Assembly (NCBI GenBank): GCA_964412525.1
Contig: CAYPOX010000005.1
Location: forward strand, 1 to 50,611
Length of the DNA stretch: 50,611 nt
Reading direction: 5' to 3'
DNA from: an uncultured Caulobacterales bacterium
GTDB taxonomy: Bacteria; Pseudomonadota; Alphaproteobacteria; Caulobacterales; CAYPOX01
The translations under genes were made by a program, and so were the position numbers. The notes under the pieces are model-generated. The model did no database searches. It was not told the DNA's origin and saw only the letters and a list, made by a program, of their open reading frames with translations. Numbering within the stretch: position 1 is the first letter of the stretch; every line of letters begins with the position of its first letter. Shown here piece after piece: positions 24,201-48,619 of the stretch.

Positions 24201-25313
24201 CTAGGCGGCGGCCGTGTGGGGCGCGCGCACGCCTCGGGCTTCCAAAATCGGGAGCACTTCATCGCGAAAATAGGGAAATTCGCCCGCGTAATCGACCATC
24301 GCCAAAGTCGTGCCGCCGAAGCCCGCCTCCTGGAGCGCGCAAATCCCGTCCGCGACCTTCTCTGGCGGGCCCACAAGCGGAAAGCCGCCATGTCCCGCCG
24401 CCATTCGGTCTTTGATCAGTTTCAAAAGATCATGCGGAAACGATTGGGCGTGCGCGAATTGCAAATCGACCAGATTGTCCACCGCCGCCCAGTCGGCTTC
24501 CTTCTGCGCATAGTGGTCGAGCCAATCGTCGGCCTCCTTCTGGGTCGGACGACAGACCACGGTCGCGAAGGTGAGCACGTCCACCTTTCGCCCTGCCGCC
24601 GCCGCCTTGTCGTGGATCTCCGCCACTTCGCCCTTGGAGCGTTCGAGATCGATCGCCGGGGTGAACAGGAAATTGACGTTCCGGACCGCGAAGTCTCGGC
24701 CTTGGCCGGATCCCGCCGCATTGACCAATGGCGGCATGCCATGGACGGGCTTGGGCGAGCCGACCGCCCCTTTCATCTGAAAGTATTGGCCGTCCCAATC
24801 GAACGCTTCATCCGCCGTCCAAAGCTTTTTGACGACGTCGAACCACTCCTGTGCGTAGCCGTAACGCGTTTCGTGATCGTCCGGCAGGCCGATCCCCATC
24901 GCGTCGTATTCGGGCTTGTTCCATCCGGCGACGATGTTCAGTCCCGCCCGTCCGGCGCCGATCTGATCGATGGTCGCGATCTGCTTGGCCACCACCATGG
25001 GATGATTGAAGGCCGTGTGCATGGTGGCGATGACCGAAATCCGCTCCGTCACCGACAACAGGCCCGCCGCCCAGGCCATGGTCTCCAGCACGTCGCCGTG
25101 AAAGTCCGTGTCGCCGCCATAGCCGATCCATCGAGCGATCGGCAGCATGAAGTCGATCCCAGCTTGATCCGCGAGCTGCGCCAGGCGCTTGTTGTTCTCC
25201 CAGGAATTGACCCATCGCTCAGGAACCTTCGTCACCGCCATGCCCGAGGAGCAATTGGCCGCGAAGAAGCCCAGTTTGAACTGCCTTGCGTCGAACATCG
25301 GGTTTGGTTTCAT
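24201..25313 (-). CDS. luciferase-like (LLM) flavin-dependent monooxygenase, RutA/SfnG-like subgroup
   Basis: LGFFAANCSSG, LPIARWIGYGG, HPMVVAKQIATIDQI, GLNIVAGWNKPEY, NAAGSGQGRDFA; start set at ATG 25313. Confidence 0.9.
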   Translation of the reverse strand: MKPNPMFDARQFKLGFFAANCSSGMAVTKVPERWVNSWENNKRLAQLADQAGIDFMLPIARWIGYGGDTDFHGDVLETMAWAAGLLSVTERISVIATMHTAFNHPMVVAKQIATIDQIGAGRAGLNIVAGWNKPEYDAMGIGLPDDHETRYGYAQEWFDVVKKLWTADEAFDWDGQYFQMKGAVGSPKPVHGMPPLVNAAGSGQGRDFAVRNVNFLFTPAIDLERSKGEVAEIHDKAAAAGRKVDVLTFATVVCRPTQKEADDWLDHYAQKEADWAAVDNLVDLQFAHAQSFPHDLLKLIKDRMAAGHGGFPLVGPPEKVADGICALQEAGFGGTTLAMVDYAGEFPYFRDEVLPILEARGVRAPHTAAA

Positions 25314-25323
25314 GACGGCCCCC

Positions 25324-26421
25324 TCACCCGCCACGCGGCGCGCCGATCGCCACGGGCCGCACCGGAGAACCGGAACCGCCTTCGATGCGCAGGGGCAGCA
25401 CCATCATGCAGGACAGCCAAACCTGGTCGCGCGCCAGGTCGTCGAGCTTGCCGTTCTGGATCTGCAGCACGCCCGATTGGGTGAGATTGTGGTGATGCAC
25501 GGCGAAAGGCAGCGCCTTCGGCGTGCCGTCCGGCGCGCCGGCCTCGCCGCGGAGAAATCCGTCGCGCACGGGATCGGTGAACGGGTTGTCGAGCGAAACC
25601 AAGACAACGGCTTTGTCGCCGACATATTGGACCGCGTCATAAGAAAGACCTGGCCCCATTTGATAATAGGGCGTGTCGTCGGCGGGATCGCGCCAATTCT
25701 CCGACCAGCCCGTGTGAATCAGAAGCGCATCGCCAGGGAGAACGCCGCGCCAGCCCAGGCCCTGCGCCGCGATCATGGCCTCGATATCCGTCGCCGTGAC
25801 AAGCTCCCCCGGCTCCAAGGCCCGGCCCCTGAGACGCTTGGCGTCCAACAAAAGGCCCGAGGTGACGATCGGCGGCACGCGGTCGATGCCCAATTTCGCG
25901 AGCGGCGCGTCGTCGGACGGCTTCACCTCCGATTGACGAAAGCCGCCGTAATACTCGGCCGCGTCGGCCGGGAAGGGCGGCGTTCCGTCCCAAGCCTCCG
26001 GCAGAAAGGCGAAATGGCCCAGCGCGTCCATCTGCGTGCCCTGGGCCGCGGGCTCTCCCTCCAGCGTCTCGCCGTTAAAGGCGTGGGCGGCCCCTGGCAG
26101 ACCCACGGTCGGCTTGAAACGATATGTCAGAGGCGCGCCGAACGGGGATCCGGGCATCGTGTTGGATCGGATGTGGGACAGCTCGTAAGCCTTCGCGCCA
26201 GGTTCGTTGAGGTGGTGCGCGCACCGCGCCCAGGTGCCCGGCCCCTGGGTGTTGGCCATGCCGCGTTCGTCGCCGGGTCCCCAGGGCGGTGTCGGCGTGG
26301 CGTCGGCGGCTTGAGCCGTCACGGTCTGCAAATCCGCAGGAGCGTTCGACGCGCATCCAGCGGCCAAGGCGAAGGCAAGCGCCGCCGCGCCCTTGGTGCA
26401 AACCGATCCCTCGACTTTCAT
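25324..26421 (-). CDS. cyclase-family (kynurenine formamidase / isatin hydrolase superfamily) amidohydrolase, predicted lipoprotein
   Basis: Lipobox LAAGC; WGPGDERGMAN; QGTQMDALGH variant of HxGTHxDAPxH; GDALLIHTGW; GGSGSPVRPVAI. Confidence 0.85.
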   Translation of the reverse strand: MKVEGSVCTKGAAALAFALAAGCASNAPADLQTVTAQAADATPTPPWGPGDERGMANTQGPGTWARCAHHLNEPGAKAYELSHIRSNTMPGSPFGAPLTYRFKPTVGLPGAAHAFNGETLEGEPAAQGTQMDALGHFAFLPEAWDGTPPFPADAAEYYGGFRQSEVKPSDDAPLAKLGIDRVPPIVTSGLLLDAKRLRGRALEPGELVTATDIEAMIAAQGLGWRGVLPGDALLIHTGWSENWRDPADDTPYYQMGPGLSYDAVQYVGDKAVVLVSLDNPFTDPVRDGFLRGEAGAPDGTPKALPFAVHHHNLTQSGVLQIQNGKLDDLARDQVWLSCMMVLPLRIEGGSGSPVRPVAIGAPRGG

Positions 26422-26509
26422 GGCGCCGCCCCCCTGGCTTCCGTCGGTCTGGTTGACCGATTTGTCCGCTCAAAGACTGCCGCAGGGTTCCGAGCCCCTC
26501 AAGAAAAAA

Positions 26510-26523
26510 CTTTAAGCTTGAAA
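26510..26523. promoter_or_regulatory. operator copy 1 (TTTTA-N4-TAAAA family)
   Basis: CTTTA-AGCT-TGAAA between the divergent cyclase/LLM and permease genes. Confidence 0.65.
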
Positions 26524-26552
26524 TAGATTCGCGCCGTGGCGAGCGTGTCTCT

Positions 26553-27863
26553 ATGACCGATCTTTCGACCGACCCGGCGACGCCCGCCGTCGCACGTCCC
26601 CGACGCCTCTGGAAAGCGCTGGGTCCTGGCATTCTGTTCGCGGGCGCAGCCGTCGGCGTGTCGCATTTGGTGCAGTCGACCCGGGCCGGAGCCGAATTCG
26701 GGTTGGCGCTCATCGGGTTCGTGATCATCGCCAATTTGATGAAGTACCCCGCGTTCCGCATCGGCAACCAATACGCCGCGGCCACCGGCCATAATCTGTT
26801 GATCGCCTATAAGAAGCAGGGGCGGCTCGCGTTGGGGCTGTTCGTGGCGGTGACGCTCGCCACGATGTTCGTCGGCGCGGCGGCGGTCTCGATCACCGTG
26901 TCCGCCCTCGCGGTGGCCACCTTCAACCCGCCCTTTGGCGTGCTCACGGCGACCTTGATCCAATGGAGCGCGATCATCGCGCTGCTCTATTTCGGGCGTT
27001 TCAAAGCTCTGGACACGATCGTGAAAGCGCTTTTGAGCTTTCTGACCGTCAGCACGGTGATCGCCACGATCCTCGTCTTTCCGATGCTGGAGGTGTCCGG
27101 CTTCGGCGACTTTTGGCCGGCGCATTTTGATCGGGCGACCCTCCTTTTCATCGCCGCCTTGGTGGGATGGATGCCGGCGCCGCTGGACACCTCGGTCTGG
27201 CAGTCTCTTTGGAGCCAGGCGAAAACCGGATCCGACGGTGTGGCGGCCACGATGGAGGAGACCGCCTTCGATTATAATGTGGGCTTTGTGGGCACGGCCG
27301 TCCTCGCCTGTTGCTTTGTGGTGATGGGCGCCGGCGTGATGCACGGGACCGGCGAGAGCTTCGCTGGCGGCGCGGCCGGCTTCGCCGCCCAAGTCATCAG
27401 CCTCTATGAGCGCGCATTGGGGCCGACGGTCGCCACATTGGTGGGCATGGCGGCGATGGCGGTCGTATTCTCCACGGCTTTGACGGCGATCGACGCCTGG
27501 CCGCGCACCCTCGCCGGGATCGCGCTGGTGATCCAACGCGGCGAAGACGCGGAGCGAGACCACACCATCAGTCACGCGATCGGTCATCCCTACTATTGGA
27601 TCGGCATGGCGGTGTTACTGGCCGGCGCCTTCGGCATCCTCGCCTTCATGATGGGCGATTTCAGCGCCCTCGTGGACGTCGCGACGACCATCTCCTTTCT
27701 TTCAGCGCCGATTTTCGCGTGGATGAATCACCGCGCCATGTTCGGCGAGGGCTTGGGGGATCACGGCCTGGGCGGCGGCTTGAAGCTGTGGAGCTTGCTG
27801 GGCGTGATCGGATTAGGGTCGTTCGCTCTGTTCTTCCTCGTCGCCCGGTTCGCGCTGGGTTGA
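26553..27863 (+). CDS. Nramp-like (APC superfamily) permease
   Basis: GPGILFAGAAVGVSHLVQSTRAGA and GWMPAP motifs; about 11 hydrophobic segments. Confidence 0.8.
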   Translation: MTDLSTDPATPAVARPRRLWKALGPGILFAGAAVGVSHLVQSTRAGAEFGLALIGFVIIANLMKYPAFRIGNQYAAATGHNLLIAYKKQGRLALGLFVAVTLATMFVGAAAVSITVSALAVATFNPPFGVLTATLIQWSAIIALLYFGRFKALDTIVKALLSFLTVSTVIATILVFPMLEVSGFGDFWPAHFDRATLLFIAALVGWMPAPLDTSVWQSLWSQAKTGSDGVAATMEETAFDYNVGFVGTAVLACCFVVMGAGVMHGTGESFAGGAAGFAAQVISLYERALGPTVATLVGMAAMAVVFSTALTAIDAWPRTLAGIALVIQRGEDAERDHTISHAIGHPYYWIGMAVLLAGAFGILAFMMGDFSALVDVATTISFLSAPIFAWMNHRAMFGEGLGDHGLGGGLKLWSLLGVIGLGSFALFFLVARFALG

Positions 27864-27923: not shown

Positions 27924-29474
27924 TCAAATCGCCTTGAGAACTTCGTCCGCCGTCCGTGCCGCCAACGCATAGGCGGTGAATGTAGGGTTCGCCGCGCCCG
28001 CGGTCGGAAAAAGCCCCGGGCCGGCGATGATCAGATTTTCGTGGTCGTGCGTACGGCCAAAGGAGTCGCAGACGGAGGCGGCCGGATCGTCGCCCATGAT
28101 CGTCCCGCCCATCATATGGGCGTGGCCGACGGGTCCGAACCAAACCTCCTCGGCCCCGGCGGCCTGCATCACCCGTTCGCCCTCCTGACGCGCCAACTCC
28201 CGAAGCGCGAGGGTGTTCTCGTCAAACCGGTGCGTGATCTTCGCCGTACGCGCCCCGTCCGGCCCCTCCACGTCAGAGAGCTCGATGCGGCTTTCCCGAC
28301 GCGGCAACTCCTCCGCCATGTTCAACATATTGGCGAGGTGGTGGACCGCGCGGTCCATGAAGGCGTGGAGCGCCGGCCCAAACAGGTCTGCCCGGCTTGT
28401 TGCGACCCCGGCCAAGTCGTTCGGCTTGATGGCCGGCGCGATCAGCCATTGGTGGCTGCCGAACGGTCCTCCGTCGCCGCGGTCCTTGGGATAGCCCGCA
28501 TGGCTCATCAAATGGGCGCCGGAGACGCCGAAGAAATTGTCCGTGCGGTCGGGGAACATGCCGAAGGTCGGCGTAAGCGCATGGGCCATGAAATAGGCGC
28601 CGAGGAGCCCGCTGCGATTGGCGAGGCCGTTCGGATGATCAGCGTCCGCGGAGTTGAGCAGAATGACCGGGTTATGAACGACCGACGCCGCCAGAATCAC
28701 CGTGTCGGCGCGCAAGGTGCGGATCCGGCCCTCCGAATCCCCATAGCGCAGGGATGTGATCCGTCCCCTCTCGGCGACCAGTTTGGAGACATAGGCGCGC
28801 GTGCGAAACTCCGCGCCGGCCGCTTTTGCGCGCGGAATGTCCTCCACCAACGGATTCCAAAGCGCGTTGATCGGGCAGCCGGCGTCGCACCACCCGTCAT
28901 AGATGCAGGGCGCGCGGCCCTTATAGGGCTCGGTCAAGATCGCCATCGGCGCCGGAAACGTCGGAATGCCGAGCGCATCAAAGCCGCGCTTCAGGACAGT
29001 CGCCTGAGTCAGCGGCGGCACCGGCCGTAACGGATAGGGATCTCCGGGCGGACGCAAGGTTTCGATCGTCGCGTCGCCGCTGACGCCAACCTCCGCTTGG
29101 ATGCGGTCATAGAACGGGCGAAGATCCCCATAATCGATCGGCCAATCCAATCCGCGCCCATAAGTCGACCGGACCTTGAAGTCCGACTCCCTTAAGCGCG
29201 GCCAGGTCCCATAATGGTGCAAGGCCGCGCCGCCCAACCCCCATCCCCCATTGAAGCCGTAGCCATAGGGCCGGTCGCCGGCCGCAATCACCGGCGGACC
29301 GCCCCATCGCAAGCGGCGAGACCAGATCTGGCTGGAGACCAGATCTTCCATCTCCCAAGCGGGACCAGCCTCGAGAACCGTGACGGCTTTTCCGGCCTCG
29401 GCGAATCGGCGAGCCAGATACGCGCCGGTCGCGCCCGCGCCCACGATCGCGACCTCGGTCTCCTTCCTCACCAT
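27924..29474 (-). CDS. GMC family FAD oxidoreductase, large subunit
   Basis: IVGAGATG, LGGAALHH, CIYDGWCDAGCP Fe-S-type motif, HMMGGTIMG, ANPTFT. Confidence 0.92.
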   Translation of the reverse strand: MVRKETEVAIVGAGATGAYLARRFAEAGKAVTVLEAGPAWEMEDLVSSQIWSRRLRWGGPPVIAAGDRPYGYGFNGGWGLGGAALHHYGTWPRLRESDFKVRSTYGRGLDWPIDYGDLRPFYDRIQAEVGVSGDATIETLRPPGDPYPLRPVPPLTQATVLKRGFDALGIPTFPAPMAILTEPYKGRAPCIYDGWCDAGCPINALWNPLVEDIPRAKAAGAEFRTRAYVSKLVAERGRITSLRYGDSEGRIRTLRADTVILAASVVHNPVILLNSADADHPNGLANRSGLLGAYFMAHALTPTFGMFPDRTDNFFGVSGAHLMSHAGYPKDRGDGGPFGSHQWLIAPAIKPNDLAGVATSRADLFGPALHAFMDRAVHHLANMLNMAEELPRRESRIELSDVEGPDGARTAKITHRFDENTLALRELARQEGERVMQAAGAEEVWFGPVGHAHMMGGTIMGDDPAASVCDSFGRTHDHENLIIAGPGLFPTAGAANPTFTAYALAARTADEVLKAI

Positions 29475-30049
29475 GGTTTGGGCGGATCGATATGATGCAT
29501 GCGTTCGACCTGGAGCCGGTCAAAGCCTTCCGGAGATCCGTAATAGACGTCGACCGCGTCGCTGCGCGCGACAAAGTAGAACAACGGCGCCGGCGGACCG
29601 GCCCAACCCTCCGGCTGCGCCGCGGCGATGGCGCCGATCAGGGAGGCCGCGTCGGCGTCCGACGTCTCGGTGAAGGGCCGTCCGAAACGCATGGCCGCGA
29701 GCTGGTCCAAACCTGCAGCCCCATCACGGTAAAACGACGCCGCGTCGCCCGGCCAATCCATGTAACGGAGTATGGAAAGATTGGCCTCGCGGGGGCCGGC
29801 CGAGACCGCGTCAATGAAATGGGTGAAGCCGGCCGCCGTGGCCCCGGGAACCAGGACGTCGCCCAGACGATCCAGAACCCGGACCGTGTCCGGAGCCAGC
29901 ACGCGAAAGGCCGCGCCCGCCGCGCGGGCCTCTTCCGGCGTCAAGCGCTCCGCGCAACCGCCGACGAGATAGACGAAGAGCGCGCCCGCGCCCCCGACGA
30001 TCTGCCGTCGATGGGGCGCGCAGCTTTTCGCGGCCATGGATCGGCTCAA
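29468..30049 (-). CDS. gluconate 2-dehydrogenase subunit 3-like small subunit with Tat signal
   Basis: RRQIV twin-arginine, hydrophobic stretch ending LVGGC, LVPGATAAGFTHFID, YYGSPEGF; TTG start overlaps the receptor stop (alternative ATG 30037). Confidence 0.85.
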   Translation of the reverse strand: MSRSMAAKSCAPHRRQIVGGAGALFVYLVGGCAERLTPEEARAAGAAFRVLAPDTVRVLDRLGDVLVPGATAAGFTHFIDAVSAGPREANLSILRYMDWPGDAASFYRDGAAGLDQLAAMRFGRPFTETSDADAASLIGAIAAAQPEGWAGPPAPLFYFVARSDAVDVYYGSPEGFDRLQVERMHHIDPPKPW

Positions 30050-32598
30050 TATTGGAACCGAAGCTGGAGTTGATAGGTCCGCGGCGGCTGGAAGGAGATT
30101 TCGTTGCTGCCGCTGTTGGTGGCCAAGTCAAAACCCTGCACGCCGATGCGCTCATCCGCGATGTTGTTGACCGCAAACGCAACCTGGTAGCGGTTGCCGT
30201 CGCTGGCCCACCCCAGGCGGGCGTTCACAAGCACGTAAGAATCGAACAGATCCGCATCGAAGTTACGAAGATTGTAGAAGTATTCGTCGGAATAGGAGAT
30301 GACGCCGAGCGCAGAGGCGTAACCGCCGAACATGGGCCACTCATAGCGAATGAGACCGTTCGCCTGAAACTCCGGCGCGTAGACCGGATCGACGTCGCTG
30401 ACCGGTGCGCCATCTCCGATCCGTAGAGGCACGTCTTCGACGGTGGCGTCGAAATAGGCGAAGCCCGCCGCAAGATCGAGGCCTTCAATCGGCGTCGCCT
30501 GGATCTCCCATTCGGTTCCGATCGTGTTCGCGTCGGCGTTGACGACGAAGCCCGCCACGCCGGTGAAAAGGAACGCCTGATAGTCCGTGTAGTCGTAGTA
30601 GAAGATGTTGCCGTTGAGGCGCATCTTCCCGTTGAACCAGTCCGACTTGAAGCCGCCTTCAAAAGATAGGAGGGCCTCGCGGTCATAGGGGATGAATTCC
30701 GCGACATTCGCCACGGGGGCGCCGCCGGCGAGTTGGGCGTTGTAGCTCGGCGCTTTCACGCCGCGATTGACGCCCGCATAGAAGAGAAGGTTGTCCGTCG
30801 GCGTGTAGTCCAATTGCACCTTACCCGACCAAAGCGTGTCGTTACGCTCGTCGGTGAAGTCCTGCGGCACGCCGTTCTCGTCAAAGATCGGGCCGATCTG
30901 GAACGGGGTCCCAACGCCGAACTGACGCGAGTCGACGGTGTTGTAGATGTTTTGTGCGAACACATAATCCTTGTTCTCGAACACGACCCGCACGCCGCCG
31001 ATCAAAGTGAGATTGGAGAGCACGGACTGTTCGATTTGCCCGAACAAGGAAAACGAATTGGTTTTCAATGTGGCGTCCGATTGCAAGTCGAACGGAGCGC
31101 CGGGCACCACCGAGCCGACCGGAAATTTCAGTCCGTTCGCCGACGTGGTGTCAATGTTCAAATAGAAGAGGCCGGCCGTCCAATTTCGCGTTGGACCGTC
31201 GCCGGCGATCCGCAATTCCTGGGTGATGCTGCGCGAGTCCACGCCCGCAAAGTTCGCGGACACGTTGGCGGGCCCGGCGTCGACATCGATGAAAAGCTCT
31301 TTGAAGTAGTCTTTGTAGTCGCCGATATAGAAGATGGTCAGGTTGTCAGACAGCTCATAGGTGGCGCGCGCCGAGCCGCCGAGCGTGCGAACCCGACCGA
31401 TGTCGTCAAAAGCGAAGTCGCTCGAGAAGGTGAAGTCTTCACCGTCCGGATCGCGATAACCGAAGAAATCGCCGCCTGGCGCCGCTCGGCCGATCGGCCC
31501 GTCGGCCGGCGTTCCGAACACGCCGTCATTGTCGGCGTCCCCGCCGAGATCAATCCCTGCCGGACCAATGGACGTGCGGCTTTCATTCGGCGCCACGTCG
31601 ATGACGTTGATGAGCTCAAGATTTCCTTCGAACTGGGTCGAGGTGAGAATGCCTTCCGGATTCTCCTCAAACACGCCGATCGTCGGTTTGGCTTGATAGG
31701 GACCAACGCTGAGCTCCGATCGCGCGCCGTTGAAGGCGAAGCCGAACTCCAATCGATCCGTCGCTTTGTAGGCGATCTGAAAACGACCGGCGATGGTGTC
31801 GTCGTCGCCCAAATCCGCCCCGGCGTCCGGTCCCGGCGCATCGCCGAACGGCGCTTGGATAAGGCCGGCGTCCGCGAGCCCAAAGGTGGCGCCGCCAATG
31901 GCGCCCTCCGGATATCGGTTTTGCAGAAGCGGCTCTTGATAATCGTAGAGAACCGAGGCCCGGAACGCCAAGTTTTCAGAGATCGGACCGCCGATCGCGG
32001 CTTCGGTGCGGATCTGATAGGCGTCGGCTTCGGTCGCGAACCGGCTCGCTTGGATGTCGACATAGCCTTCATAGCCGTCGAAGCTGGGTTTGTTGGTGAT
32101 GTATTGGACCGCGCCGCCGGTGGCGTTACGGCCGAACAGCGTGCCCTGCGGACCCTTCAGATTTTCGACGCGGTCAATGTCGAACACGCCGAAGGTTTGG
32201 GCCTGGGCCACGGCCACATAGGTGTCGTCCACATACACCGCGATCGGAGCTTCCACGATGTCGTTGAAATCGTTTTGCGCGACGCCGCGGATGGTGAACT
32301 GGGTGTTTTGGCCGGCCAAGTTGCCCGAAATGTGGACGCCTGGCGTGAAGGAGGCCACATCGAAGCTGGTTTCGACGCCCAACTGGTCAAGCTGGGTCCC
32401 GGTGAAGGTCTGGATCGCGATCCCGACATCCTGTTCGCTCTGTTCACGCCGCTGCGCCGTGACCTGGATTTCCTCGATCACGCTGGTCTGAGCGAAAGCG
32501 GGCGTCGACGCGGCGAACCCCGTGACCAACGCCGCCAAAGATGCGCCGCCGCAGAGAACCGCGCGCGGCGGCCTCCGAATGCATTTCACGTGCAACAT
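30046..32598 (-). CDS. TonB-dependent receptor
   Basis: Signal peptide AFA-Q, EEIQVTAQRREQSEQDV, DIDRVENLKGPQGTLFGRNATGGAV, C-terminal FQY. Confidence 0.93.
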   Translation of the reverse strand: MLHVKCIRRPPRAVLCGGASLAALVTGFAASTPAFAQTSVIEEIQVTAQRREQSEQDVGIAIQTFTGTQLDQLGVETSFDVASFTPGVHISGNLAGQNTQFTIRGVAQNDFNDIVEAPIAVYVDDTYVAVAQAQTFGVFDIDRVENLKGPQGTLFGRNATGGAVQYITNKPSFDGYEGYVDIQASRFATEADAYQIRTEAAIGGPISENLAFRASVLYDYQEPLLQNRYPEGAIGGATFGLADAGLIQAPFGDAPGPDAGADLGDDDTIAGRFQIAYKATDRLEFGFAFNGARSELSVGPYQAKPTIGVFEENPEGILTSTQFEGNLELINVIDVAPNESRTSIGPAGIDLGGDADNDGVFGTPADGPIGRAAPGGDFFGYRDPDGEDFTFSSDFAFDDIGRVRTLGGSARATYELSDNLTIFYIGDYKDYFKELFIDVDAGPANVSANFAGVDSRSITQELRIAGDGPTRNWTAGLFYLNIDTTSANGLKFPVGSVVPGAPFDLQSDATLKTNSFSLFGQIEQSVLSNLTLIGGVRVVFENKDYVFAQNIYNTVDSRQFGVGTPFQIGPIFDENGVPQDFTDERNDTLWSGKVQLDYTPTDNLLFYAGVNRGVKAPSYNAQLAGGAPVANVAEFIPYDREALLSFEGGFKSDWFNGKMRLNGNIFYYDYTDYQAFLFTGVAGFVVNADANTIGTEWEIQATPIEGLDLAAGFAYFDATVEDVPLRIGDGAPVSDVDPVYAPEFQANGLIRYEWPMFGGYASALGVISYSDEYFYNLRNFDADLFDSYVLVNARLGWASDGNRYQVAFAVNNIADERIGVQGFDLATNSGSNEISFQPPRTYQLQLRFQY

Positions 32599-32635: not shown

Positions 32636-32649
32636 TTTTAGGCTTAAAA
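32636..32649. promoter_or_regulatory. operator copy 2
   Basis: TTTTA-GGCT-TAAAA with perfect arms, abutting the -10 of the receptor promoter. Confidence 0.75.
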
Positions 32650-32678
32650 GATTAGGATTCGAATTTTCCCGATGTCAA
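32649..32678 (-). promoter_or_regulatory. sigma70-type promoter of the TonB receptor-GMC operon
   Basis: Minus strand TTGACA-N18-TAATCT. Confidence 0.65.
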
Positions 32679-33220
32679 TTCGAACTGGGCTTCGAGTCGG
32701 GCGTCGGCGGCGACTGGTGATCAGGCTCAAACGCTTCGTGACCCAGATTGTCGCCCACGCGACGCAGCAAGGCGTTGAGGGTCTCCACGTCCTGTCCGGA
32801 CAACCCCCGGACGGCGACCAAAAACAGCGACGACGCAGCGGCTTGGACGCGTTCTAAGCGTTGCCGACCACGCGGGGTCAAACAGACTTCCGTGACGCGC
32901 GCATCGCTTTCCCGACGGCGACAAACCACGTTCCCTTCCGCCTGCATGCGCTGGACGACGCGCGTGATCGTCGAGAGCTTCATCACGGCCAGCTCCGCGA
33001 TTTCGCTGACGCTGGCCGGATCGCGCTCATTGAGGATCATCAGTGCGCGCCAGGTGGGTCGGTCGACGCCCACTTGGGCGAGGGCGTTCAGCAACGTTGC
33101 GTTGTACCGTTCCGCCGCGCGGTTCATCAGGAAAAACGGATAGTCGTTCAGACGAAACCTTGGCTCATCCGGGGTCGCACGCCGAATGGCGTCGCTGATC
33201 TCGTCATCTCCTGAGGTCAT
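32675..33220 (-). CDS. MarR family regulator, IacR/IadR-like
   Basis: FRLNDYPFFLM..WRALMILNE..SVSEIAELAVMKLSTITRVVQRM..DARVTEV; resembles my recollection of the indole-3-acetate regulator IacR. Confidence 0.85.
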   Translation of the reverse strand: MTSGDDEISDAIRRATPDEPRFRLNDYPFFLMNRAAERYNATLLNALAQVGVDRPTWRALMILNERDPASVSEIAELAVMKLSTITRVVQRMQAEGNVVCRRRESDARVTEVCLTPRGRQRLERVQAAASSLFLVAVRGLSGQDVETLNALLRRVGDNLGHEAFEPDHQSPPTPDSKPSSN

Positions 33221-35435: not shown

Positions 35436-35437
35436 TC

Positions 35438-40432: not shown

Positions 40433-40435
40433 GGC

Positions 40436-41248
40436 TCAATCTCCTTGAAAGATGGGCTTTTCTTTCGCCACGAAGGCGCGATAGGCGCGCTCGAAATCCT
40501 TGGTCTGCATGCAAATCGCCTGGGCCTGCGCTTCCGCCTCGATCGCGGCTTCCAGGCTCATCGCCCACTCCATGTGGAGGGCGTTCTTGGTCATGCCGTT
40601 GGCGAATGCGGGTCCGCGGGCGATCGCTTCGGCGAGGGCGTGCGCCTCGTCCAAAAGCGCGTCGGCCGCGATCAGGCGATTGTAGAATCCCCAGCGTTCG
40701 CCTTCCTCGGCGCTCATGAAGCGCCCGGTGTAAAGAAGCTCCGACGCGCGCCCTTGACCGATGATGCGGGGCAGGACGGCGCACGCGCCCATATCGCAAC
40801 CCGCGAGACCGACACGATTGAACAGGAACGCGGTCTTCGCGGCGGGCGTCGCGAGCCTCAAATCGGACGCCATCGCCATGATCGCACCCGCCCCGGCGCA
40901 TATTCCATCCACCGCCGCCACGATCGGTTGCGGACAGGCGCGCATCGCTTTCACGAGATCGCCGGTCATGCGCGTGAAGTCGACCAGCTCCGGCATGTCC
41001 ATCGCCACCAGGGGACCGATGATCTCATGCACGTCTCCGCCGGACGAGAAATCGCCGCCGGCTCCGGACACGACCAGGGCCTTGACCTCTTTCCGGTAGA
41101 CCAGCGCGCGGAACCAGTCCCGCAACTCGGCGTAGGACTCGAAGGTCAGCGGGTTCTTTTTCTCCGGACGGTTCAGGGTAATCCGTCCGACGCCGTCCGC
41201 GAAGGACCAGTTGAAATGCTCGGGGCGAAACGTGCGCGCGTCGGTCAT
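40436..41248 (-). CDS. enoyl-CoA hydratase family protein (abm-cluster type)
   Basis: [42 protein letters not shown]. Confidence 0.93.
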
Positions 41249-41745
41249 GCGGCTTCCCGCTCGGCCTTATCCATGGCGTCGACCTCGTCCCGCACGACGC
41301 CTAGGGCGTCGGCCAACCGCGCCAGACCCGATTGGCTCAGGCTCGAAAAAACGTCGGTGATCCACTCTTCATGGGCCATCGCCATTTCGTCGAAGACCGC
41401 GCGCCCGGATTCGGTGAGACGCACGCGCACGCTGCGGCGGTCCTTCGGGTCCACTTCGCGTGTCAGATGGCCGTCTTCGGCGAGCCGGTTCACCAGGCCG
41501 GTGACGTTGCCGTTCGACACCAAGAGCCGCCGTGACAGCGCGCTCATGGTCATCGGTTCGTCGGATCGGCTCAGCGCCGCCAACACGTCGAAACGCGGCA
41601 AGGTCGTGCCGAACTGCTCTTGCAGCTGCGTTTGCAATCGCTTCTCGATCAGCGTCGTGCAAGCCAGCATTTTCAGCCAGGTCTTGAGACTATCCTTGCC
41701 GCGTCCCCTTTGAAGTTCGATCGCACGCTCGAACGTTCCGCTCAT
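41245..41745 (-). CDS. MarR family regulator of the abm-type operon
   Basis: [41 protein letters not shown]; ATG overlaps the SDR stop. Confidence 0.92.
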
Positions 41746-42500
41746 GTCACCTCTCCGCCTGCGACGGCGATCGCTTGGCCGGTCACGCCCCGCGCCTGAT
41801 CGCCGCATAACCACAACACCGTATCGGCGACTTCTTCGGGCGCGATCAAGCGGCCCTGGGGATTGTGGCGGGTGAACTCTTCGAGAGCGGCGTCGCGGTC
41901 GCGCCCGGTCATGGCGGTGACGGCGTCGAGCGCATCAGCCACGAGGTCGGTGTCGGTGAAGCCCGGACACACCGCATTGAAGGTGATCCCGCCCGCCGCC
42001 CGCTCGGCCGCGAGCGCGCGCATCAAACCGATCGCGCCATGCTTCGCGGCGCAATAGGCCGCGCAATAGGCGTAACCTTTGAGGCCGGCGGTCGAAGCAA
42101 CCGTGATGACGCGCCCATAGGCTTGGGGATGCATACGCCGCAGCGCTTCGCGCGCGCACAAAAATGGCCCGGTCAGATTCACCGCCGTCATTCTGTCAAA
42201 GAGATCGATGTCCGTTTTGGCGAACGGCGCGGTCTCGGCTGCGCCGGCGTTGTTCACCAGGATCGCGATCGGAGCGCGTTCATGCGCCGCCTCGAAGGCC
42301 TCTATCACGCTCGCCTCGTCGGTGACGTCGCAGGCGATGGCGGAACCGTCGCGTAGGCTGGCCGCCACCGCCTGAAGCGGCTCAAGGCGACGCCCCATCA
42401 CCGTCACGCAGGCGCCGGCCCGGTCGAGAGCACGGGCGGTTGCGGCCCCGATGCCGGAACCGCCGCCGGTCACAACGGCATGACGTCCCGCCAGATTCAC
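41742..42500 (-). CDS. SDR oxidoreductase (3-hydroxyacyl-CoA dehydrogenase-like, abm-cluster type)
   Basis: [29 protein letters not shown]. Confidence 0.93.
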
Positions 42501-44797
42501 GCGCGCATCGCCTCCGCTTCGGCTGCGGCGCGCGCCATATTGCGCTTCAGCTGGCTGAATCCATTGAGATAGGGCGGCGGCACGGCGACGCCGTCATACT
42601 GCATTTGCGCCGCCGCGCGGATTGACCAAGACGGATCGACCAAATGCGGCCGCGCAAGCGCGACCAAATCCGCGCGACCCGCCGCCAAGATCGAATTGGC
42701 GTGATCCACTTCATAAATGTTGCCCACGGCCATGGTGGCGCATCCAAGCGAATTGCGGATCTGGTCGGAGAAGGGCGTTTGGAACATTCGCCCATAGACC
42801 GGCTTGGCGTCCCTTGTGGTCTGTCCCGCCGACACGTCGATCAAATCCGCCCCGGCCGACTTGAAGGCGCGCGCGATCTCCGTCGCCTCCTCCGGCGTCA
42901 CTCCAGCGTCGCCGACCCAATCGGTCGCGGAAATGCGCACGGACATCGGTTTCTCATCCGGCCAAACATCGCGCATCGCATGGAACACCTCGAGCGGATA
43001 GCGCAGCCGGTTTTCGAGCGACCCGCCATATTCGTCCGTGCGCGTGTTCTGCACCGGCGTCAGAAAGGCGGACAGGAGATAGCCATGGGCGCAGTGCAGC
43101 TCGACCATGTCGAAACCTGCCTGTTGGGCCATGTCCGTCGCGCGCACGAACTGGTCGCGCACCTCATCCATGTCCGCTCGGGTCATCGGGCGGGGCGTCT
43201 TGTTCTCAGGCGACCACGCCACGTCGGACGGAGCGATCAGATCCCAGCCGCCGCTCTCCAGCGGTTCGTCCATGCCCTCCCAACCGATCTTGGTGGCGCC
43301 CTTGGCGCCGGCATGGCCCAATTGAAGACAGATCTTCGCATTCGATCTCGCATGGACGAAATCGACGACCCGCCGCCAGGCGTCGACATGGTCCGGCGCA
43401 TACATGCCCGTACAGCCAGGGGTGATGCGCGCGGTCGGCGACACGCAGGTCATCTCCGTAAAGACCAGGCCCGCCCCGCCCATGGCCCGAGAACCGTAGT
43501 GGACCAGGTGAAAATCGTCGGGGGTCCCGTCGGTCGCGCTGTAGGTCGCCATCGGCGACACGACCACGCGATTCTCCAGCGTCATGGCGCGCAGATGGAA
43601 CGGCGTGAACATGGGCGGCGTCGGCGTATTGGCGGCGCGGCCGGTCGCTTCCTCCGCGTACCAATTCTCCACCTCGCGAAGCCAACCTGCATCGCGCAGC
43701 CGCAAGTTTTCATGGCTGATCCGTTGGCTGCGCGTGAGGAGCGAGTAGGCGAACTGCATCGGCGCGAATTGGAGATAGCGCTCGACATTCTCGAACCACT
43801 CGGTCGAGTTTCGCGCGGCGTTCTGAATCTTCAGGACTTCGACGCTGCGCTCGTCCTCATAGCTTTGCAAACGGTCGTCCAAGGGCAGGTCGGCGGCCGC
43901 CAGATGCTCGGAAAGGGAGATCGCATCCTCAAGCGCGAGCTTGGTGCCCGAGCCGATCGAGAAGTGCGCCGTATGAGCGGCGTCGCCGAGCAGGACGACA
44001 TTGCCGCGCCGCCAACGGTCGCAAAGGATGCGCGGAAAGTTCAGCCACGCTGATGACCGCAAATGGCGGGCGTTCGAAATCAACTCATGCCCGCCCAAAT
44101 GATCGGCGAAGATGCGCTCCAGGGTCCGGCAGGATTCGTCCTGGGTCATGTCGCCGAAGCCCCACTTCTCCCAGGTCTCCGGCGAACACTCGCAGATGAA
44201 GGTCGCGGTGTCGGCGTCGAATTTATAGGCGTGCGCCCAGATCCAACCGTGTTCCGTCTCTTCGAAGATGAAGGTGAATGCGTCGAACTTCTGTTGGGTG
44301 CCTAGCCATACGAACTTGTTCCGGCGCACGTCTCGGTCGACGCCGAAATCCTCTTCGTGGAGCGACCGGATCTTGCTGTTCACTCCGTCGGAGGCGACGA
44401 CGAGATCGTAGCCCTCAAACTGGTCCAAATTCGGCTCCAACTCGACCTCGAAACGCAGATCGACGTCGAGCTCCCGCGCCCGGTCCTGCAAAATGTTCAA
44501 CAGGCGTTTCCGGCCGATGCCGCAAAAACCGTGTCCGGACGAGCGAACCCGCGCACCGTTCACGACCACTTCCACATCGTCCCAATGGGCGAACTCTTCG
44601 AGAATGGCCCGCGCGCTTTTCGGGTCTTTGTCCTCCAGATGATCCATCGTTTGGTCGGAGAACACGACGCCCCACCCAAAGGTGTCGCCGGGGCGATTGC
44701 GTTCGAACACCGTCACCTCATGGGACGGGTCCTGAAGCTTCATGAGATTGGCGAAATAGAGCCCGGCGGGTCCCCCGCCCACGCATGCGATCCTCAT
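42497..44797 (-). CDS. abmA: bifunctional 2-aminobenzoyl-CoA monooxygenase/reductase (salicylyl-CoA 5-hydroxylase family)
   Basis: N-terminal FAD monooxygenase ([36 protein letters not shown]) fused to an OYE domain ([25 protein letters not shown]); AGGAGG RBS. Confidence 0.93.
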
Positions 44798-44816: not shown

Positions 44817-44838
44817 ATTATTTTAAGTATAAAATAAT
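44817..44838. promoter_or_regulatory. operator copy 3 (strongest)
   Basis: ATTATTTTA-AGTA-TAAAATAAT, perfect 9-bp arms, 20 nt upstream of the abmA start, overlapping -10-like hexamers. Confidence 0.85.
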
Positions 44839-44867: not shown

Positions 44868-46892
44868 TCACTGCGACGCGCGTTCGTTGAGCCAAGGGGG
44901 CGGCGTCCACCAACGCGGCCCGAAACGATCGGCATAGGCGGCGACGGCGCGTTTGGTCTCCGCCCATCCCCGCGCCTCGGCCTGAAACATCGGGCCGCCC
45001 TTGGCGCGGGGGAAGCCATAGCCATGGACCAAAACGACATCGACATCTTCGGGCGATCGGGCGACGCCGTCCTGGAGGACGCCCGCCGCCTCGACCGTCA
45101 TGGCCAACAGACATCGTTCCACGATCTCGTCGTCGTCGAGCAGCCGCGGCGGCGCGTTTTGGCGGTCGGCTTCCGCAGCGATGATGTCGAGCGCCGCCTC
45201 ATGGCGGGACGCGGCCGCACCCTCATGGCGATAGAAACCGGCGCCGACTTTCCGGCCCAGCATGCCCGCGGCGACCAAGGCGTCGTGCACGTGAAAAGCG
45301 CGCGGTTCAAAATCGGCTTCATCGCGCGCCTCCCGCATCGCGTGGCCGATGTCGAGCCCCGCGAGGTCCAGGGCTTGGAAAGGTCCCATGGGCAGGCCAA
45401 AGGCGCGCATCGCCGCGTCGATCGGCTCCGGATCGCGGGTTTCTAAAAGCATGAGTCCGGCCTCGCGCTGATAGCCTTGCCAGATTCGGTTCCCAATAAA
45501 GCCCCAGCCGACTCCGCTGATCACCGGGATCTTTCTCAGCGCTTTCGCGAAGGCGAGGCCCGTGGCCAGCGTGTCCGGATGGGTCGCGGCGCCGTCAACC
45601 ACCTCCACCAACCGCATGACGTGCGCCGGATTGAAAAAATGCAGTCCGATCACATCTTGCGGACGCCCCGAGGCCGCGGCGATCGCATCCACGTCGAGAT
45701 AGGACGTGTTCGTGGCGAGCACGGCGTCGTCTTTGATGATGCGGCTCAATTCCTCAAACAGAAGGCGCTTGGCGTCCATACGCTCGACGATCGCCTCGAC
45801 CACGAGATCGGCGTTTGATGCGGCGCGAAGGTCCGATGCGGCGGAGAGTCGTTGCAGGGCGTCCGCCGCCGTCCCGGAGAGGCGGCCCTTCGCCGCGTCC
45901 CGCTGCAGGATGCTCTCGATCGCATCGCGCGCCGCGGTCCGCGCGCCTTGATCCACATCGCACAGCACCACCTGTCGACCGGCGCGCAGCGCGGCGGCGG
46001 CGATGCCGCGCCCCATGGCTCCGGCCCCCACGACGGCGACCACATTGACCCCGCGCGCCGCGCCTTTGCGATCCTCAGTCGGCTTCCCAGAGGCGCGTTC
46101 TGCGAAAAACATCCGGCGCAGCGCGCGCGCTTCCGGCGAAGCCTTCAAATCGAGGAAGCGCCGCCGCTCCTCTTTCAAACCGGCCTCAAGACCGTGCGCC
46201 ACGCCGTAATCGACCGCATCGACCGCGGCGGAACGCGCGGGCTCCAGCGGATAGCGGGCGGCGATCTCCGTCTTCAGCGAGGCGAGATCCTCACGGTTCA
46301 AGCAGACTTCAGGGCGTGCGGCGGGCGGCGTCATCGCGAGCGCGCAGGCGGCGTCCAGCAATTCCTCTTGGCGAACCACCGCGTCGATCACGCCGAGGCG
46401 CGCGCCGGCGCCGGCGTCGACAGTTTCGGCGTGGGCGATCATACGGGCGGCCTGGGCCGCGCCGATCATGCGCGGCAAGCGCTGCGTCCCTCCGGCCCCT
46501 GGGATCAGTCCGAGCGTGGTCTCCGGAAGCCCGATCACGCAACCGATCGCCGCCGCACGCGATCGGCAGGCCAGCGCCACCTCCAACCCGCCGCCGAGCA
46601 CGGCGCCATGCATCGCCGCAACCACAGGAATCGGGAAATCGGCGATCCGCGCGCAAAGATCCGTAAGGATTGGATCTTCCGGCGGCTTGTCGAATTCGCG
46701 AATGTCCGCACCCGAAAAGAACGTCTTGCCGCGACAGGCGAGCACGACGCCGCGAGCCGTAGCGTCCGCCTCAATAGCGTCCAGCGCCTCAGCCACGCCG
46801 CGCCGGACGTCGATTGACAAAGCGTTGACCGGCGGGTGGTCGATCCAGATGATCCGAACCGTGTCACGGTTTTCAATGGTGATCGTGGTCAA
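44868..46892 (-). CDS. bifunctional enoyl-CoA hydratase / 3-hydroxyacyl-CoA dehydrogenase (FadB/PimF-like)
   Basis: [48 protein letters not shown]; probable TTG start after GGAGGA (alternative ATG 46910). Confidence 0.92.
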
Positions 46893-46938
46893 GTGAGGTC
46901 CTCCGCCCATGCGTCGGGATAACGCTTGCCCAAAAATG

Positions 46939-46952
46939 TTTGAAGCCTAAAA
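46939..46952. promoter_or_regulatory. operator copy 4
   Basis: TTTGA-AGCC-TAAAA(TAAT) within TTGCCC-N16-TAAAAT, between the divergent fadB-like and gcdH genes. Confidence 0.7.
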
Positions 46953-46984
46953 TAATTTTTCGAGTCCGAGCGAGGAGTCTGACG

Positions 46985-48172
46985 ATGACGACGGCGAAAA
47001 GCTTCGATTGGCGTGATCCCCTGCACCTGTTGGACATGCTGACGGAAGAGGAGCGCCTCACGATGGAGGCGGCGCGCGGTTTTTGCGAGGAACGGCTCAT
47101 GCCCGGCGTGGTGCGGGCGAACCGAGAAGAGAGCTTCGACCCCGCGATGATGCGGGAATTCGGAGATATGGGTTTTCTCGGCGCAACGATCCCGGACGCC
47201 TATGGCGGGGCCGGCGCCAGCCATGTCGCCTATGGTTTGATCGCGCGCGAATTCGAACGTGTCGATTCCGGCTATCGCTCGGCGGTCTCGGTGCAATCCT
47301 CGCTCGTCATGCACCCGATTTTTGCGTTCGGAACCGAAGAGCAGAAGAAAAAGTACCTTCCCAAACTCGCGACCGGCGAGTTCATCGGCTGCTTCGGCCT
47401 GACGGAAGCCGATGGCGGCTCCGACCCCGGCGCCATGCGTACGACGGCGCGGAAGACCGCGGGCGGCTACCGATTGAACGGCTCCAAAATGTGGATCACC
47501 AATTCGCCGCTGGCGCATTTGGCGGTGGTTTGGGCGAAGGCGGACGACGCCGGCGACGCCATTCGCGGCTTCATCGTGGAGCGTGACGCGAATGGCTTTT
47601 CGACGCCGAAGATCGAGGGGAAGCTGTCCCTGCGCGCCAGCGTCACGGGCGAGATCGTGTTGGACGACGTGTTTGTCCCGGATGAAGCCCTGTTGCCGGA
47701 AGTCAAAGGTTTGCGCGGCCCCTTCTCATGCTTGAACAAGGCTCGCTACGGGATTTCGTGGGGCGGGATGGGCTCGGCGGAGTTCTGCTGGATGGCCGCG
47801 CGGGATTACGCGATGGAGCGGACGACGTTCGGCAAGCCGATCGCAAGCACCCAACTCGTCCAGAAAAAACTCGCCGACATGCAAACGGAGATCACGCTGG
47901 GCCTGATCGGGGCTCACCGCCTGGGCCAGCTGCTTGACGAAGGCGCGTTCGTGCCGGAGGCGATTTCGCTCCTGAAGCGCAACAATTGCGGAAAAGCGCT
48001 GGAGATTGCGCGCATCGCCCGCGATGTTTTGGGCGGAAACGGCATTTCCGAGGATTATCACGTCTTGCGCCACGCGATGAATCTAGAGACCGTCAACACC
48101 TATGAAGGCACGCACGACATTCACGCATTGATTTTAGGACGTGCGCAGACCGGGTTGAACGCGTTCGGTTGA
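46985..48172 (+). CDS. gcdH: glutaryl-CoA dehydrogenase
   Basis: [69 protein letters not shown]; GAGGAG RBS. Confidence 0.95.
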
Positions 48173-48214
48173 CGGCGGTCGCGTCCGCCCCGCCTTCGCG
48201 GAAAGGGACGGTCG

Positions 48215-48619
48215 ATGGAGTTTTTGCAGCCGCCGGGTTGGCCGCGTCCGAAGGGCTACGCCAACGGCGTCGCCGCGCAGGGGCGCATGGTGTTTGTGGC
48301 CGGCCAAGTCGGCTGGGACACGGACGGGCGATTTCCGGAAGGTTTCGCCGCTCAGTTTCGTCAGACGCTGGAGAACACCTTGGCGGTGTTGCGCGAAGGC
48401 GGCGCGGCGCCTGAGCATGTGGCGCGCATGACCTGGTATGTGACGGACAGGGAGGCTTATCTGGCCGCCGCGCGCGACGTCGGCGCGATTTATCGCGACC
48501 TTATGGGACGGCATTTTCCCGCCATGGCCGTCATACAAGTGACTGCGCTGATGGAGCCGGAGGCGATGGTGGAAATTGAAACCACGGCCGTTGTTCCAGA
48601 GGACGGGCCTGCCTCCTAA
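48215..48619 (+). CDS. RidA/YjgF family enamine/imine deaminase (abm-cluster type)
   Basis: LQPPGWPRPKGYANG, FVAGQVGW, MGRHFPAM, VEIETTAVVP. Confidence 0.92.
   Translation: MEFLQPPGWPRPKGYANGVAAQGRMVFVAGQVGWDTDGRFPEGFAAQFRQTLENTLAVLREGGAAPEHVARMTWYVTDREAYLAAARDVGAIYRDLMGRHFPAMAVIQVTALMEPEAMVEIETTAVVPEDGPAS

Follow-up and report, generated by a model that had tools for sequence, protein, structure and literature searches.

A candidate aerobic CoA-dependent pathway for an isatin-type N-heterocycle in an uncultured Caulobacterales bacterium

How could an N-heteroaromatic compound be carried to 2-aminobenzoyl-CoA without a Rieske oxygenase, a kynureninase or a CoA ligase? The question is raised by an island of about 24 kb (24201-48619) in the genome of an uncultured Caulobacterales bacterium (GCA_964412525.1, contig CAYPOX010000005.1), within a stretch of 50,611 nucleotides (50.6 kb) which was analysed as a whole and is here called the window. 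The island holds genes for a two-subunit 2-oxoacid oxidoreductase (IorAB), an AbmA-type flavoenzyme with beta-oxidation-type partners, an exported cyclase-family protein and a set of upstream proteins, from which an earlier sequence-only reading had proposed a new catabolic system. We consider it somewhat probable that an isatin-type N-heterocycle is degraded by the products of the island, aerobically and CoA-dependently, via isatinate and 2-aminobenzoyl-CoA. Overall it would be a variant of known CoA-dependent aromatic catabolism that overlaps the iad family of loci, with a predicted core logic for which comparative genomics gives good support. Directly observed, and described below, are the identities of the genes, the signals for export, the operator shared by several operons, and the patterns of neighbourhood and phyletic occurrence.

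No open reading frame (ORF) of the window carries an AMP-binding signature (at least 380 aa) or a Rieske signature (at least 300 aa), and tblastn gave no match in the window to IadC, IadD, IadE, IadF, IadG or IadH and only a 33% match to IadJ, with a short-chain dehydrogenase/reductase (SDR). The genome, which is 98.7% complete, contains eight AMP-binding genes, none of them on the contig of the window (C5), and its best score with the benzoate-CoA-ligase family (TIGR02262) was 182 bits against a cut-off of 375. No kynureninase and no IadD orthologue were detected in the genome, the latter search resulting only in Rieske-domain matches of 34%. The absence of a Rieske oxygenase, kynureninase or CoA ligase from the island was thus borne out by the signature searches of the window and the profile searches of the genome.

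The centre of the island is formed by IorA (33267-35435, + strand), the alpha subunit of a split 2-oxoacid oxidoreductase which binds thiamine diphosphate (TPP) and was assigned with Pfam and NCBIfam, and IorB (35438-36928, +), the beta subunit with a DUF6537 extension. With IadA and IadB of the Variovorax fucosicus locus L053 they share 67% and 51% identity, respectively. IorA scored 294 bits on the IOR_alpha equivalog TIGR03336, whose cut-off is 651; IorB passed the subfamily model NF006179 (643.6 bits vs a cut-off of 348) but remained below the IOR_beta equivalog cut-offs. The genes iadA (iorA) and iadB (iorB) have been described as exclusive markers of the iad locus type (PMC9613470), and loci with MarR-IorA-IorB are known from auxin degraders of Variovorax, Achromobacter and Bradyrhizobium (PMC9613470; gene table in PMC12852158). 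In iad strains, dioxindole is converted to isatin, isatinic acid and anthranilate, and isatinate was measured as an intermediate (PMC9613470, PMC12633357). Nine Variovorax genes, iadC-K2, are enough for anthranilate formation, removal of the acetate side chain depends on the IadF ligase, and the enzyme IadI is described as a broad amidase (PMC12633357). The available text of the iad papers assigns no function to IadA and IadB, and that of both versions of the Variovorax preprint (PMC12633357) does not mention them. The sequence-only reading did not know the upper-pathway enzyme set as a described pathway, and this stood in part: MarR-IorA-IorB is a published iad hallmark, so that the enzyme set of the centre is not new, while its function is unassigned in print.

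The neighbourhood of IorA was surveyed in 80 loci, one genome per species, with IorA proteins 64-75% identical to that of the window; these are the best-scoring loci and not a random sample. Neighbours were scored by tblastn with the window proteins and the Iad proteins from V. fucosicus L053, and the full-flank subset comprises the 50 loci in which IorA has 9 kb or more on either side. An IadI homologue (at least 45% identity) was found near IorA in 42 of the 50 full-flank loci (51/80 of all loci) and stood directly upstream and co-directional in 16 (21/80). The profile built from eleven census IadI proteins matched the solved isatin hydrolases at 8e-134 to 4e-111, therefore the census IadI proteins are isatin hydrolase orthologues. 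AbmA was present near IorA in 20 full-flank loci, 18 of them with IadI, and in 25 of all 80; a RidA homologue occurs in 10 of these 20 full-flank AbmA loci. The Rieske protein IadD was near IorA in 15/50 and 20/80 loci, respectively. A co-directional operon iadI-iorA-iorB-abmA-SDR-ECH-ACAD-4HBT-RidA, where ECH is an enoyl-CoA hydratase, ACAD an acyl-CoA dehydrogenase and 4HBT a thioesterase, was found in a Gemmatimonadaceae metagenome-assembled genome (MAG; L023) and in two Acidobacteriota MAGs (L041, L068). Single operons that unite iadI, iorAB, abmA, beta-oxidation genes and RidA are spread over three phyla. No ORF with an AMP-ligase signature lies within 10 kb in 19 of the 25 loci with both IorA and AbmA, by a regular-expression test that can miss ligases. 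As its simplest reading, the census supports that IorAB would convert the hydrolase product isatinate to 2-aminobenzoyl-CoA. The central step of the sequence-only reading, a cyclase-family ring opening followed by the IorAB reaction to 2-aminobenzoyl-CoA for AbmA with no ligase, hence received strong comparative support from the IorA census.

Two further observations were made in the census. A Parvibaculaceae MAG (L033:1964-21004) has abm-type genes together with IorAB and IadF-G-H-I-J-D-E on a single stretch which, judged by its gene content, is a natural fusion of the upper pathway for indole-3-acetic acid (IAA) with the 2-aminobenzoyl-CoA lower pathway. Selenocysteine was considered in IorA and rejected, as the in-frame TGA of many matches is the natural C-terminal stop.

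The product of IorAB would be taken over by an abm-type operon. AbmA (42497-44797, -; 766 aa) is an AbmA/SdgC-type enzyme with 1296.3 bits on NF006101 (cut-off 1078) and is bifunctional, with an N-terminal FAD monooxygenase domain (PF01494) and a C-terminal old yellow enzyme (OYE) reductase domain (PF00724). The distal part of the operon (38829-42500, -) encodes an SDR, a MarR, an ECH (NF006107, 487.7 bits vs 330), an ACAD and a 4HBT thioesterase, and the same SDR-MarR-ECH-ACAD-4HBT set follows AbmA also in L002, L023, L041, L056, L066 and L068. A PcaF/PaaJ-type 3-oxoacyl-CoA thiolase (36931-38136, +) scored 641.9 bits on NF006551 (cut-off 605) and 634 on TIGR02430 (cut-off 597). A FadB-like enoyl-CoA hydratase/3-hydroxyacyl-CoA dehydrogenase (44868-46910, -) was assigned with Pfam and NCBIfam, and the glutaryl-CoA dehydrogenase GcdH (46940-48172, +) is related to solved enzymes of this name at 3e-171. 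The GcdH alignment to the solved enzymes begins at query residue 18, and the true start is probably the ATG at 46985, not 46940. A RidA-family enamine/imine deaminase (48215-48619, +) scored 53 bits on TIGR00004, below the cut-off.

The ring-opening candidate is the cyclase-family lipoprotein (25324-26421, -; PF04199, 64.8 bits vs a cut-off of 23.1), the sole PF04199 gene in its genome, which has the lipobox LAAGC. By phmmer against the PDB it found only the uncharacterised 5ibz, with no isatin hydrolase at E <= 0.01. Where IadI and the isatin hydrolases have HTGTHFDAPxH, it reads AQGTQMDALGH, and the clade motif is QGTQxDxxGH. In an alignment of eight genome orthologues Q127, Q130, D132 and H136 are invariant, and all eight (8/8) start with a signal peptide. 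The protein is about 100 residues longer than isatin hydrolase. Representative clusters of the family number 1794 at E <= 1e-3 and 122 at E <= 1e-30. An AlphaFold (AF2) model from a 40-sequence alignment reached a predicted local distance difference test score (pLDDT) of 92.9; a first fold from 8 sequences, with a pLDDT of 53, was not used. With this model Foldseek ranked 5ibz at the top (9e-22), then the isatin hydrolases (about 1e-13), followed by cyclase-phosphotriesterase and kynurenine formamidases, with template modelling (TM) scores to the isatin hydrolases of 0.49-0.51 when normalised by the query and 0.64-0.70 when normalised by the target. By sequence and predicted fold, the cyclase is a member of an uncharacterised, divergent exported clade and not an isatin hydrolase orthologue. 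A tblastn search with IadI gave no match in the window, and the isatin-hydrolase (IadI) profile, at E <= 1e-10, none in its genome (G000); the same profile was positive at 1.6e-130 in G310, a genome that belongs to another family of the same order.

Close orthologues of the cyclase were detected in 1/400 other genomes of the order (G310, 66% identity) and in 6/400 sampled genomes of the class. All six of the latter (6/6) contain IorA, compared with 62/400 overall, a count that includes the unpublished G639 (Fisher p = 1.1e-5; the six clade genomes represent six families, and kinship still inflates the test). AbmA was present in 4/5 tested clade genomes, the exception being 86% complete. At E <= 1e-10 the isatin-hydrolase profile found nothing in G000, G640, G496, G572, G581, G705 and G718; isatin hydrolase thus occurs in 1/8 clade genomes (G310) vs 42/50 IorA loci (p = 1.5e-4). 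These patterns indicate that, in the clade genomes, the exported clade would replace the cytoplasmic isatin hydrolase.

The clade was also surveyed in metagenomes, where the best 80 of 441 relatives gave 32 loci of at least 6 kb, with short flanks. L162 contains iorBA and SSF-cyclase-receptor-small subunit-GMC, L152 contains cyclase-receptor-small subunit-GMC, and in L178 and L194 IorAB adjoins the cyclase. The iad cluster of L161 (FadB-IadF-G-H-J-D-E-GcdH) comes with a divergent permease/cyclase pair and without IadI. Inner-membrane carboxylate importers are encoded beside the cyclase: the TRAP transporter DctPQM in 7 loci, one of them G640 (iorA-iorB-TRAP-marR-cyclase), an SSF symporter in 4, and the Nramp-like permease, always as a divergent pair, in 3 (the window, G310, L161). 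The patterns indicate that the clade may form an anionic 2-oxoacid in the periplasm, which would be imported and passed to a TPP enzyme. As a separate observation, in L163, L169, L188 and L190 an ALS-like (acetolactate synthase-like) TPP enzyme stands in the place of IorAB, together with TRAP DctPQM and a cyclase-clade orthologue. This enzyme was considered as a benzoylformate-type decarboxylase and was not called so, as it reached no NCBIfam cut-off; the cluster may serve the same 2-oxoacid by a route without IorAB.

Upstream of the ring opening, an operon in the order receptor-small subunit-GMC runs from 32598 down to 27924. It is led by a TonB-dependent outer-membrane receptor with plug and barrel domains (30046-32598, -), followed by a Gluconate_2-dh3 small subunit (29468-30049, -; PF13618, 44.5 bits) and the catalytic subunit of a GMC-family FAD dehydrogenase (27924-29474, -; Pfam). 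The small subunit has the twin-arginine motif HRRQIV, and neither the GMC protein nor the luciferase-like monooxygenase (LLM) has an export signal of its own, as read from the sequences; the small subunit is presumed to be the export partner of the GMC subunit through twin-arginine translocation (Tat). The closest solved relatives of the GMC subunit are the alpha subunit of FAD-glucose dehydrogenase and the large subunit of fructose dehydrogenase (4e-53). A Cys-x6-Cys-x3-Cys stretch is seen in the sequences of the GMC system, at a position where FAD-glucose and fructose dehydrogenases have a 3Fe-4S site. The cyclase gene overlaps by 11 nt with the gene of the FMNH2-dependent LLM (24201-25334, -; PF00296, 197.5 bits), the two forming an operon from 26421 down to 24201. 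The LLM fell below every NCBIfam equivalog cut-off, and its closest solved relatives are SfnG (7e-40) and RutA (3e-38). Divergent from the cyclase gene is an Nramp-like inner-membrane permease (26553-27863, +; PF01566, 30 bits, at the cut-off), which reads GPGI and MPA where Nramp proteins have the metal motifs DPGN and MPH.

Co-occurrence of these modules was checked, and in G310 every module lies within 35 kb in a rearranged order: cyclase, permease, GMC, small subunit, LLM, receptor, AbmA, GcdH, RidA and 4HBT, together with ACAD, ECH, MarR, SDR, thiolase, FadB, IorAB, MarR and IadI. Subsets were found in L079, L004, L022, L152, L161 and L162. In G310, L079, L152 and L162, receptor orthologues of 50-54% identity adjoin GMC and the small subunit, and in G310, L152 and L162 the whole cyclase-receptor-small subunit-GMC set is present again. 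GMC and the small subunit adjoin IorAB in L079 (with receptor and IadI), L004 and L162. Close orthologues of the LLM are restricted to G310 (77%), L022 (68%) and L021 (58%); the gene adjoins IorAB in L021 and is the first of the abmA operon in L022. Of the proposal that the LLM, GMC and receptor are parts of the pathway, their recurrence with its modules stood, with the qualification that they are accessory and were not found in most clade genomes. GMC and LLM would therefore be optional upstream steps, dispensable for the core. G310 has additional genes between GMC and LLM (L087:1131-10258). They encode an FMO-like (flavin-containing monooxygenase-like) enzyme and an SDR, a further TonB receptor, a ferredoxin-like 4Fe-4S protein, and a flavin reductase. 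The extra genes hint at indole-type oxygenation steps that are not in the window.

The operons of the island are linked by a palindrome. With at most 3 mismatches TTTTAAGCTTAAAA has 5 matches in the window vs 0.14 expected, a number reached by 0/100 shuffles, and none of them is outside the island. Four sites lie at promoters: 26510-26523 in the divergent cyclase/permease region (2 mismatches), 32636-32649, 38 bp upstream of the receptor gene (1 mismatch), 44821-44834, 24 bp upstream of abmA (2 mismatches), and 46939-46952 in the divergent fadB/gcdH region (2 mismatches). The claim of one palindrome at four promoters was therefore confirmed, all four sites having at most 2 mismatches. The fifth match at 38749 (3 mismatches) was not counted because it overlaps with a terminator-like T-run. 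In the 46-bp marR/iorA intergenic region there is a perfect palindrome, AATCACGTGATT (33242-33253), which with at most 2 mismatches had 3 matches vs 1.79 expected; it was ruled out as a shared operator and is an operator candidate only at the iorA promoter. The MarR encoded divergently from iorA (32675-33220, -) belongs to the IacR/IadR auxin-sensing group. Its closest solved relative is Pseudomonas putida IacR (7KUA, 1.2e-26), in agreement with the earlier designation as IacR-like, and Variovorax MarR_73 (7KFO) matched at 2e-12. Unrelated taxa have a palindrome like TTTTAAGCTTAAAA (at most 2 mismatches) in their IorAB/AbmA loci as well (L020, L022, L031, L065, L079), in promoter regions in the case of L022, L031, L065 and L079. 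The recurrence suggests a conserved MarR operator for the pathway family.

From these data we infer every chemical step of the following scheme, in which the substrate and the upstream steps are hypothetical. An isatin-type compound, or a precursor one or two steps away (dioxindole, oxindole, indoxyl, indole), would enter through the TonB receptor. In the periplasm the Tat-exported GMC enzyme could oxidise an alcohol to a ketone (dioxindole to isatin, or 2-aminomandelate to isatinate), and the cyclase-clade lipoprotein would open the lactam to isatinate (2-aminophenylglyoxylate), an anionic 2-oxoacid. The divergently encoded permease would take isatinate into the cytoplasm, where the split IorAB (= IadAB) is predicted to convert it by oxidative decarboxylation to 2-aminobenzoyl-CoA. 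AbmA would hydroxylate and reduce the ring, ECH, SDR, ACAD and RidA may account for ring opening and deamination, the PcaF-type thiolase would lead to glutaryl-CoA, and GcdH and FadB would complete the breakdown. One putative MarR-type operator would link the periplasmic operons with the abm, fadB and gcdH operons, and a second putative operator, with the IacR-like MarR, would govern iorA-iorB-thiolase. The LLM is left unplaced; it may hydroxylate a membrane-permeant precursor in the cytoplasm. The order LLM, GMC, cyclase of the sequence-only reading was not retained: it involves two crossings of the inner membrane, since the LLM has no export signal, whereas the GMC small subunit and the cyclase have one. 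An LLM-first order is possible only because such small neutral molecules can cross membranes.

Several findings weigh against the isatinate pathway. The cyclase belongs to the divergent exported clade and not to the isatin hydrolase orthologues: besides the phmmer result, it lacks two His of the HxGTHxDxPxH metal motif, which are kept only in a few distant relatives, and hhalign aligned it with the IadI profile at 86% probability only over the C-terminal 147 columns. The altered metal motif of the clade may mean a different chemistry. About 20 of the 32 metagenome clade loci have no module gene in their short flanks. 2-Oxoacid:ferredoxin-type enzymes are often oxygen-sensitive, whereas AbmA requires O2. 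No cytochrome c partner for GMC was found in the operon or the island, to which this search was confined, a GMC orthologue was detected in 0/5 other clade genomes by a scan run without a positive control, and among 400 class genomes the LLM had no close orthologue (0/400), only relatives of 44-48% identity. A flavin reductase for the LLM is missing from the island, the only one of the genome being on contig C22. Variovorax iadC-K2 gives anthranilate without iadAB (PMC12633357), IadAB therefore being not required for anthranilate. Finally, no paper reporting IorAB activity on isatinate or linking isatinate, IorAB/IadAB and 2-aminobenzoyl-CoA was found in a literature coverage that included few subscription journals.

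Could the island then be an iad/iac-like locus for auxin (IAA) degradation, with the MarR as IAA sensor and with the LLM and GMC in place of IadCDE and IadJ? MarR-IorA-IorB are the published iad markers (PMC9613470), among solved structures the MarR is closest to the IAA-binding proteins IacR and IadR, and true iad clusters hold the cyclase clade (L161) or abm genes (L033). This explanation is nevertheless unlikely, given that IadC to IadH have no homologue in the window, IadJ is represented only by the 33% SDR match and the genome has no IadD orthologue; moreover, iad side-chain removal needs the IadF ligase, while the window has no ORF with an AMP-ligase signature and contig C5 no AMP-binding gene. 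A shade less improbable, but still to be doubted, is that the amino-aromatic reading is wrong and another aromatic series is processed, either phenylglyoxylate or 2-hydroxyphenylglyoxylate to benzoyl- or salicylyl-CoA, or indolepyruvate or phenylpyruvate to arylacetyl-CoA. The frequent adjacency of isatin hydrolase orthologues to IorAB (42/50 loci), the RidA deaminase in 10/20 AbmA loci and the measurement of isatinate as an intermediate of iad strains (PMC9613470, PMC12633357) speak for the isatinate pathway here. On the side of the other series are the NCBIfam name of the AbmA family NF006101, 'salicylyl-CoA 5-hydroxylase/oxidoreductase', which is also a point against 2-aminobenzoyl-CoA, the score of IorA below the IOR_alpha equivalog cut-off, so that its specificity is not fixed by the model, and the 8/50 full-flank IorA loci in which isatin hydrolase is missing.

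The least likely explanation is that two unrelated modules stand side by side, with the receptor, GMC, cyclase and LLM acting on a sugar or glycoside (e.g. indican) and IorAB-abm being independent. The same operator at the receptor, cyclase/permease, abmA and fadB/gcdH operons argues for one system, as do the recurrence of all modules in rearranged order in a genome of another family (G310), the adjacency of GMC and the small subunit to IorAB in L079, L004 and L162, and the confinement of the cyclase clade to IorA-bearing genomes; the island has no sugar-catabolic genes. The separation is favoured by the sugar dehydrogenases as the closest solved relatives of GMC, by the GMC and LLM orthologues not found in most cyclase-clade genomes, and by the many metagenome clade loci without pathway genes nearby.

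A broader proposal goes beyond the island, and we hold it tentatively, as a possibility a little more doubtful than probable. There may be a widespread unrecognised aerobic route from isatin via isatinate and 2-aminobenzoyl-CoA to AbmA, in which IorAB/IadAB would be an oxygen-tolerant isatinate:acceptor oxidoreductase (CoA-acylating) that bypasses free anthranilate and a CoA ligase, and in which the exported QGTQxDxxGH, 5ibz-like clade would be a periplasmic isatin hydrolase that displaces the cytoplasmic Mn enzyme in some lineages, with ring opening coupled to carboxylate import. If true, IadA and IadB, which plant-microbiome work treats as 'exclusive markers' of iad loci, would be assigned a reaction, and the catabolism of auxin, indole and isatin would be joined to the 2-aminobenzoyl-CoA route, the entry of which was thought to be ligase-dependent. 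A large uncharacterised exported cyclase-family clade would gain a function, and a periplasm-first layout would be recognised for a small N-heterocycle, with receptor, dehydrogenase and hydrolase outside, followed by import of the acid. Isatin and indoles act as signals in soil, plants and animals, so that it is useful for microbiome engineering to know which organisms remove them, and how. Similar loci may already be shown among the 'fragmentary iad clusters' of Sphingomonas and Sphingopyxis in PMC11630574 or in the supplementary tables of PMC9613470.

The gene content as a whole agreed with the earlier description: 20/20 genes listed at 24201-48619 were found in place by Pfam and NCBIfam searches, to which a 177-aa ORF and the shift of the GcdH start were added. 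Besides the two operons of the upstream part given above, start/stop overlaps define those of permease, marR, iorA-iorB-thiolase, fadB, gcdH-ridA and abmA-SDR-marR-ECH-ACAD-4HBT. The extra ORF (38133-38666) has no family match, even when trimmed to an inner start, and no homologue in the fetched loci; it lies in the 692-bp gap between the thiolase and 4HBT genes, which also contains a terminator-like hairpin at 38730. Promoter and terminator scans of the window gave nothing above shuffles, and the GC content of the island was not distinct from its surroundings. Directly upstream of the island lies a 3911-aa ORF (12392-24127, -) whose product, probably a giant secreted or adhesin-type protein, has a serralysin C-terminal-like domain and calcium-binding nonapeptide repeats of the RTX type. 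The genes at 3919-12351 (a TonB receptor, a beta-propeller phytase (PF02333), an SLAC1-like anion channel and then a second TonB receptor) look like a phytate/phosphate acquisition cluster.

Compared with known systems, the island is similar to the iad loci of Variovorax, Achromobacter and Bradyrhizobium in the divergent MarR followed by IorA/IorB, in the proposed isatin/isatinate chemistry and in the putative MarR operator control; where the reported end product of iad is anthranilate, the island has an abm-type operon instead (PMC9613470, PMC12633357, PMC12852158). It differs further in having no IadCDE Rieske oxygenase, IadF ligase, IadG, IadH or IadI, its upper steps being represented by the receptor, the periplasmic GMC, the exported cyclase-clade protein and the LLM. 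The isatin hydrolases of Labrenzia aggregata and Ralstonia solanacearum (4J0N, 4M8D, 5NMP, 5NNA; PMC6117287) share PF04199 with the cyclase and are its closest characterised fold. The cyclase would occupy the same place in the pathway logic, upstream of IorAB, but has QGTQxDxxGH, about 100 extra residues and export as a lipoprotein or Sec substrate. The homologous catalytic subunit and the small Tat-signal PF13618 subunit are common to the GMC system and FAD-glucose/fructose dehydrogenase (6A2U, 7W2J). In contrast to the latter, the operon of the island has no cytochrome c subunit gene, is led by a TonB receptor and stands in an aromatic rather than a sugar context.

The abm pathway of Azoarcus evansii is reportedly an aerobic 2-aminobenzoyl-CoA route with a dedicated AbmG-type 2-aminobenzoate-CoA ligase. 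The island shares with it the two-domain AbmA-type monooxygenase/reductase, the beta-oxidation-type genes and a MarR in one operon, but has no AbmG-type ligase, the CoA ester being proposed to come from the 2-oxoacid oxidoreductase. In the type of the proposed reaction, arylglyoxylate + CoA to aroyl-CoA + CO2, IorAB resembles the phenylglyoxylate:acceptor oxidoreductase (CoA-benzoylating) of the same species, which is said to be an anaerobic enzyme of five subunits from another subunit family. The island differs from this system in its two-subunit IorAB with a DUF6537 extension, which is encoded beside an O2-dependent monooxygenase.

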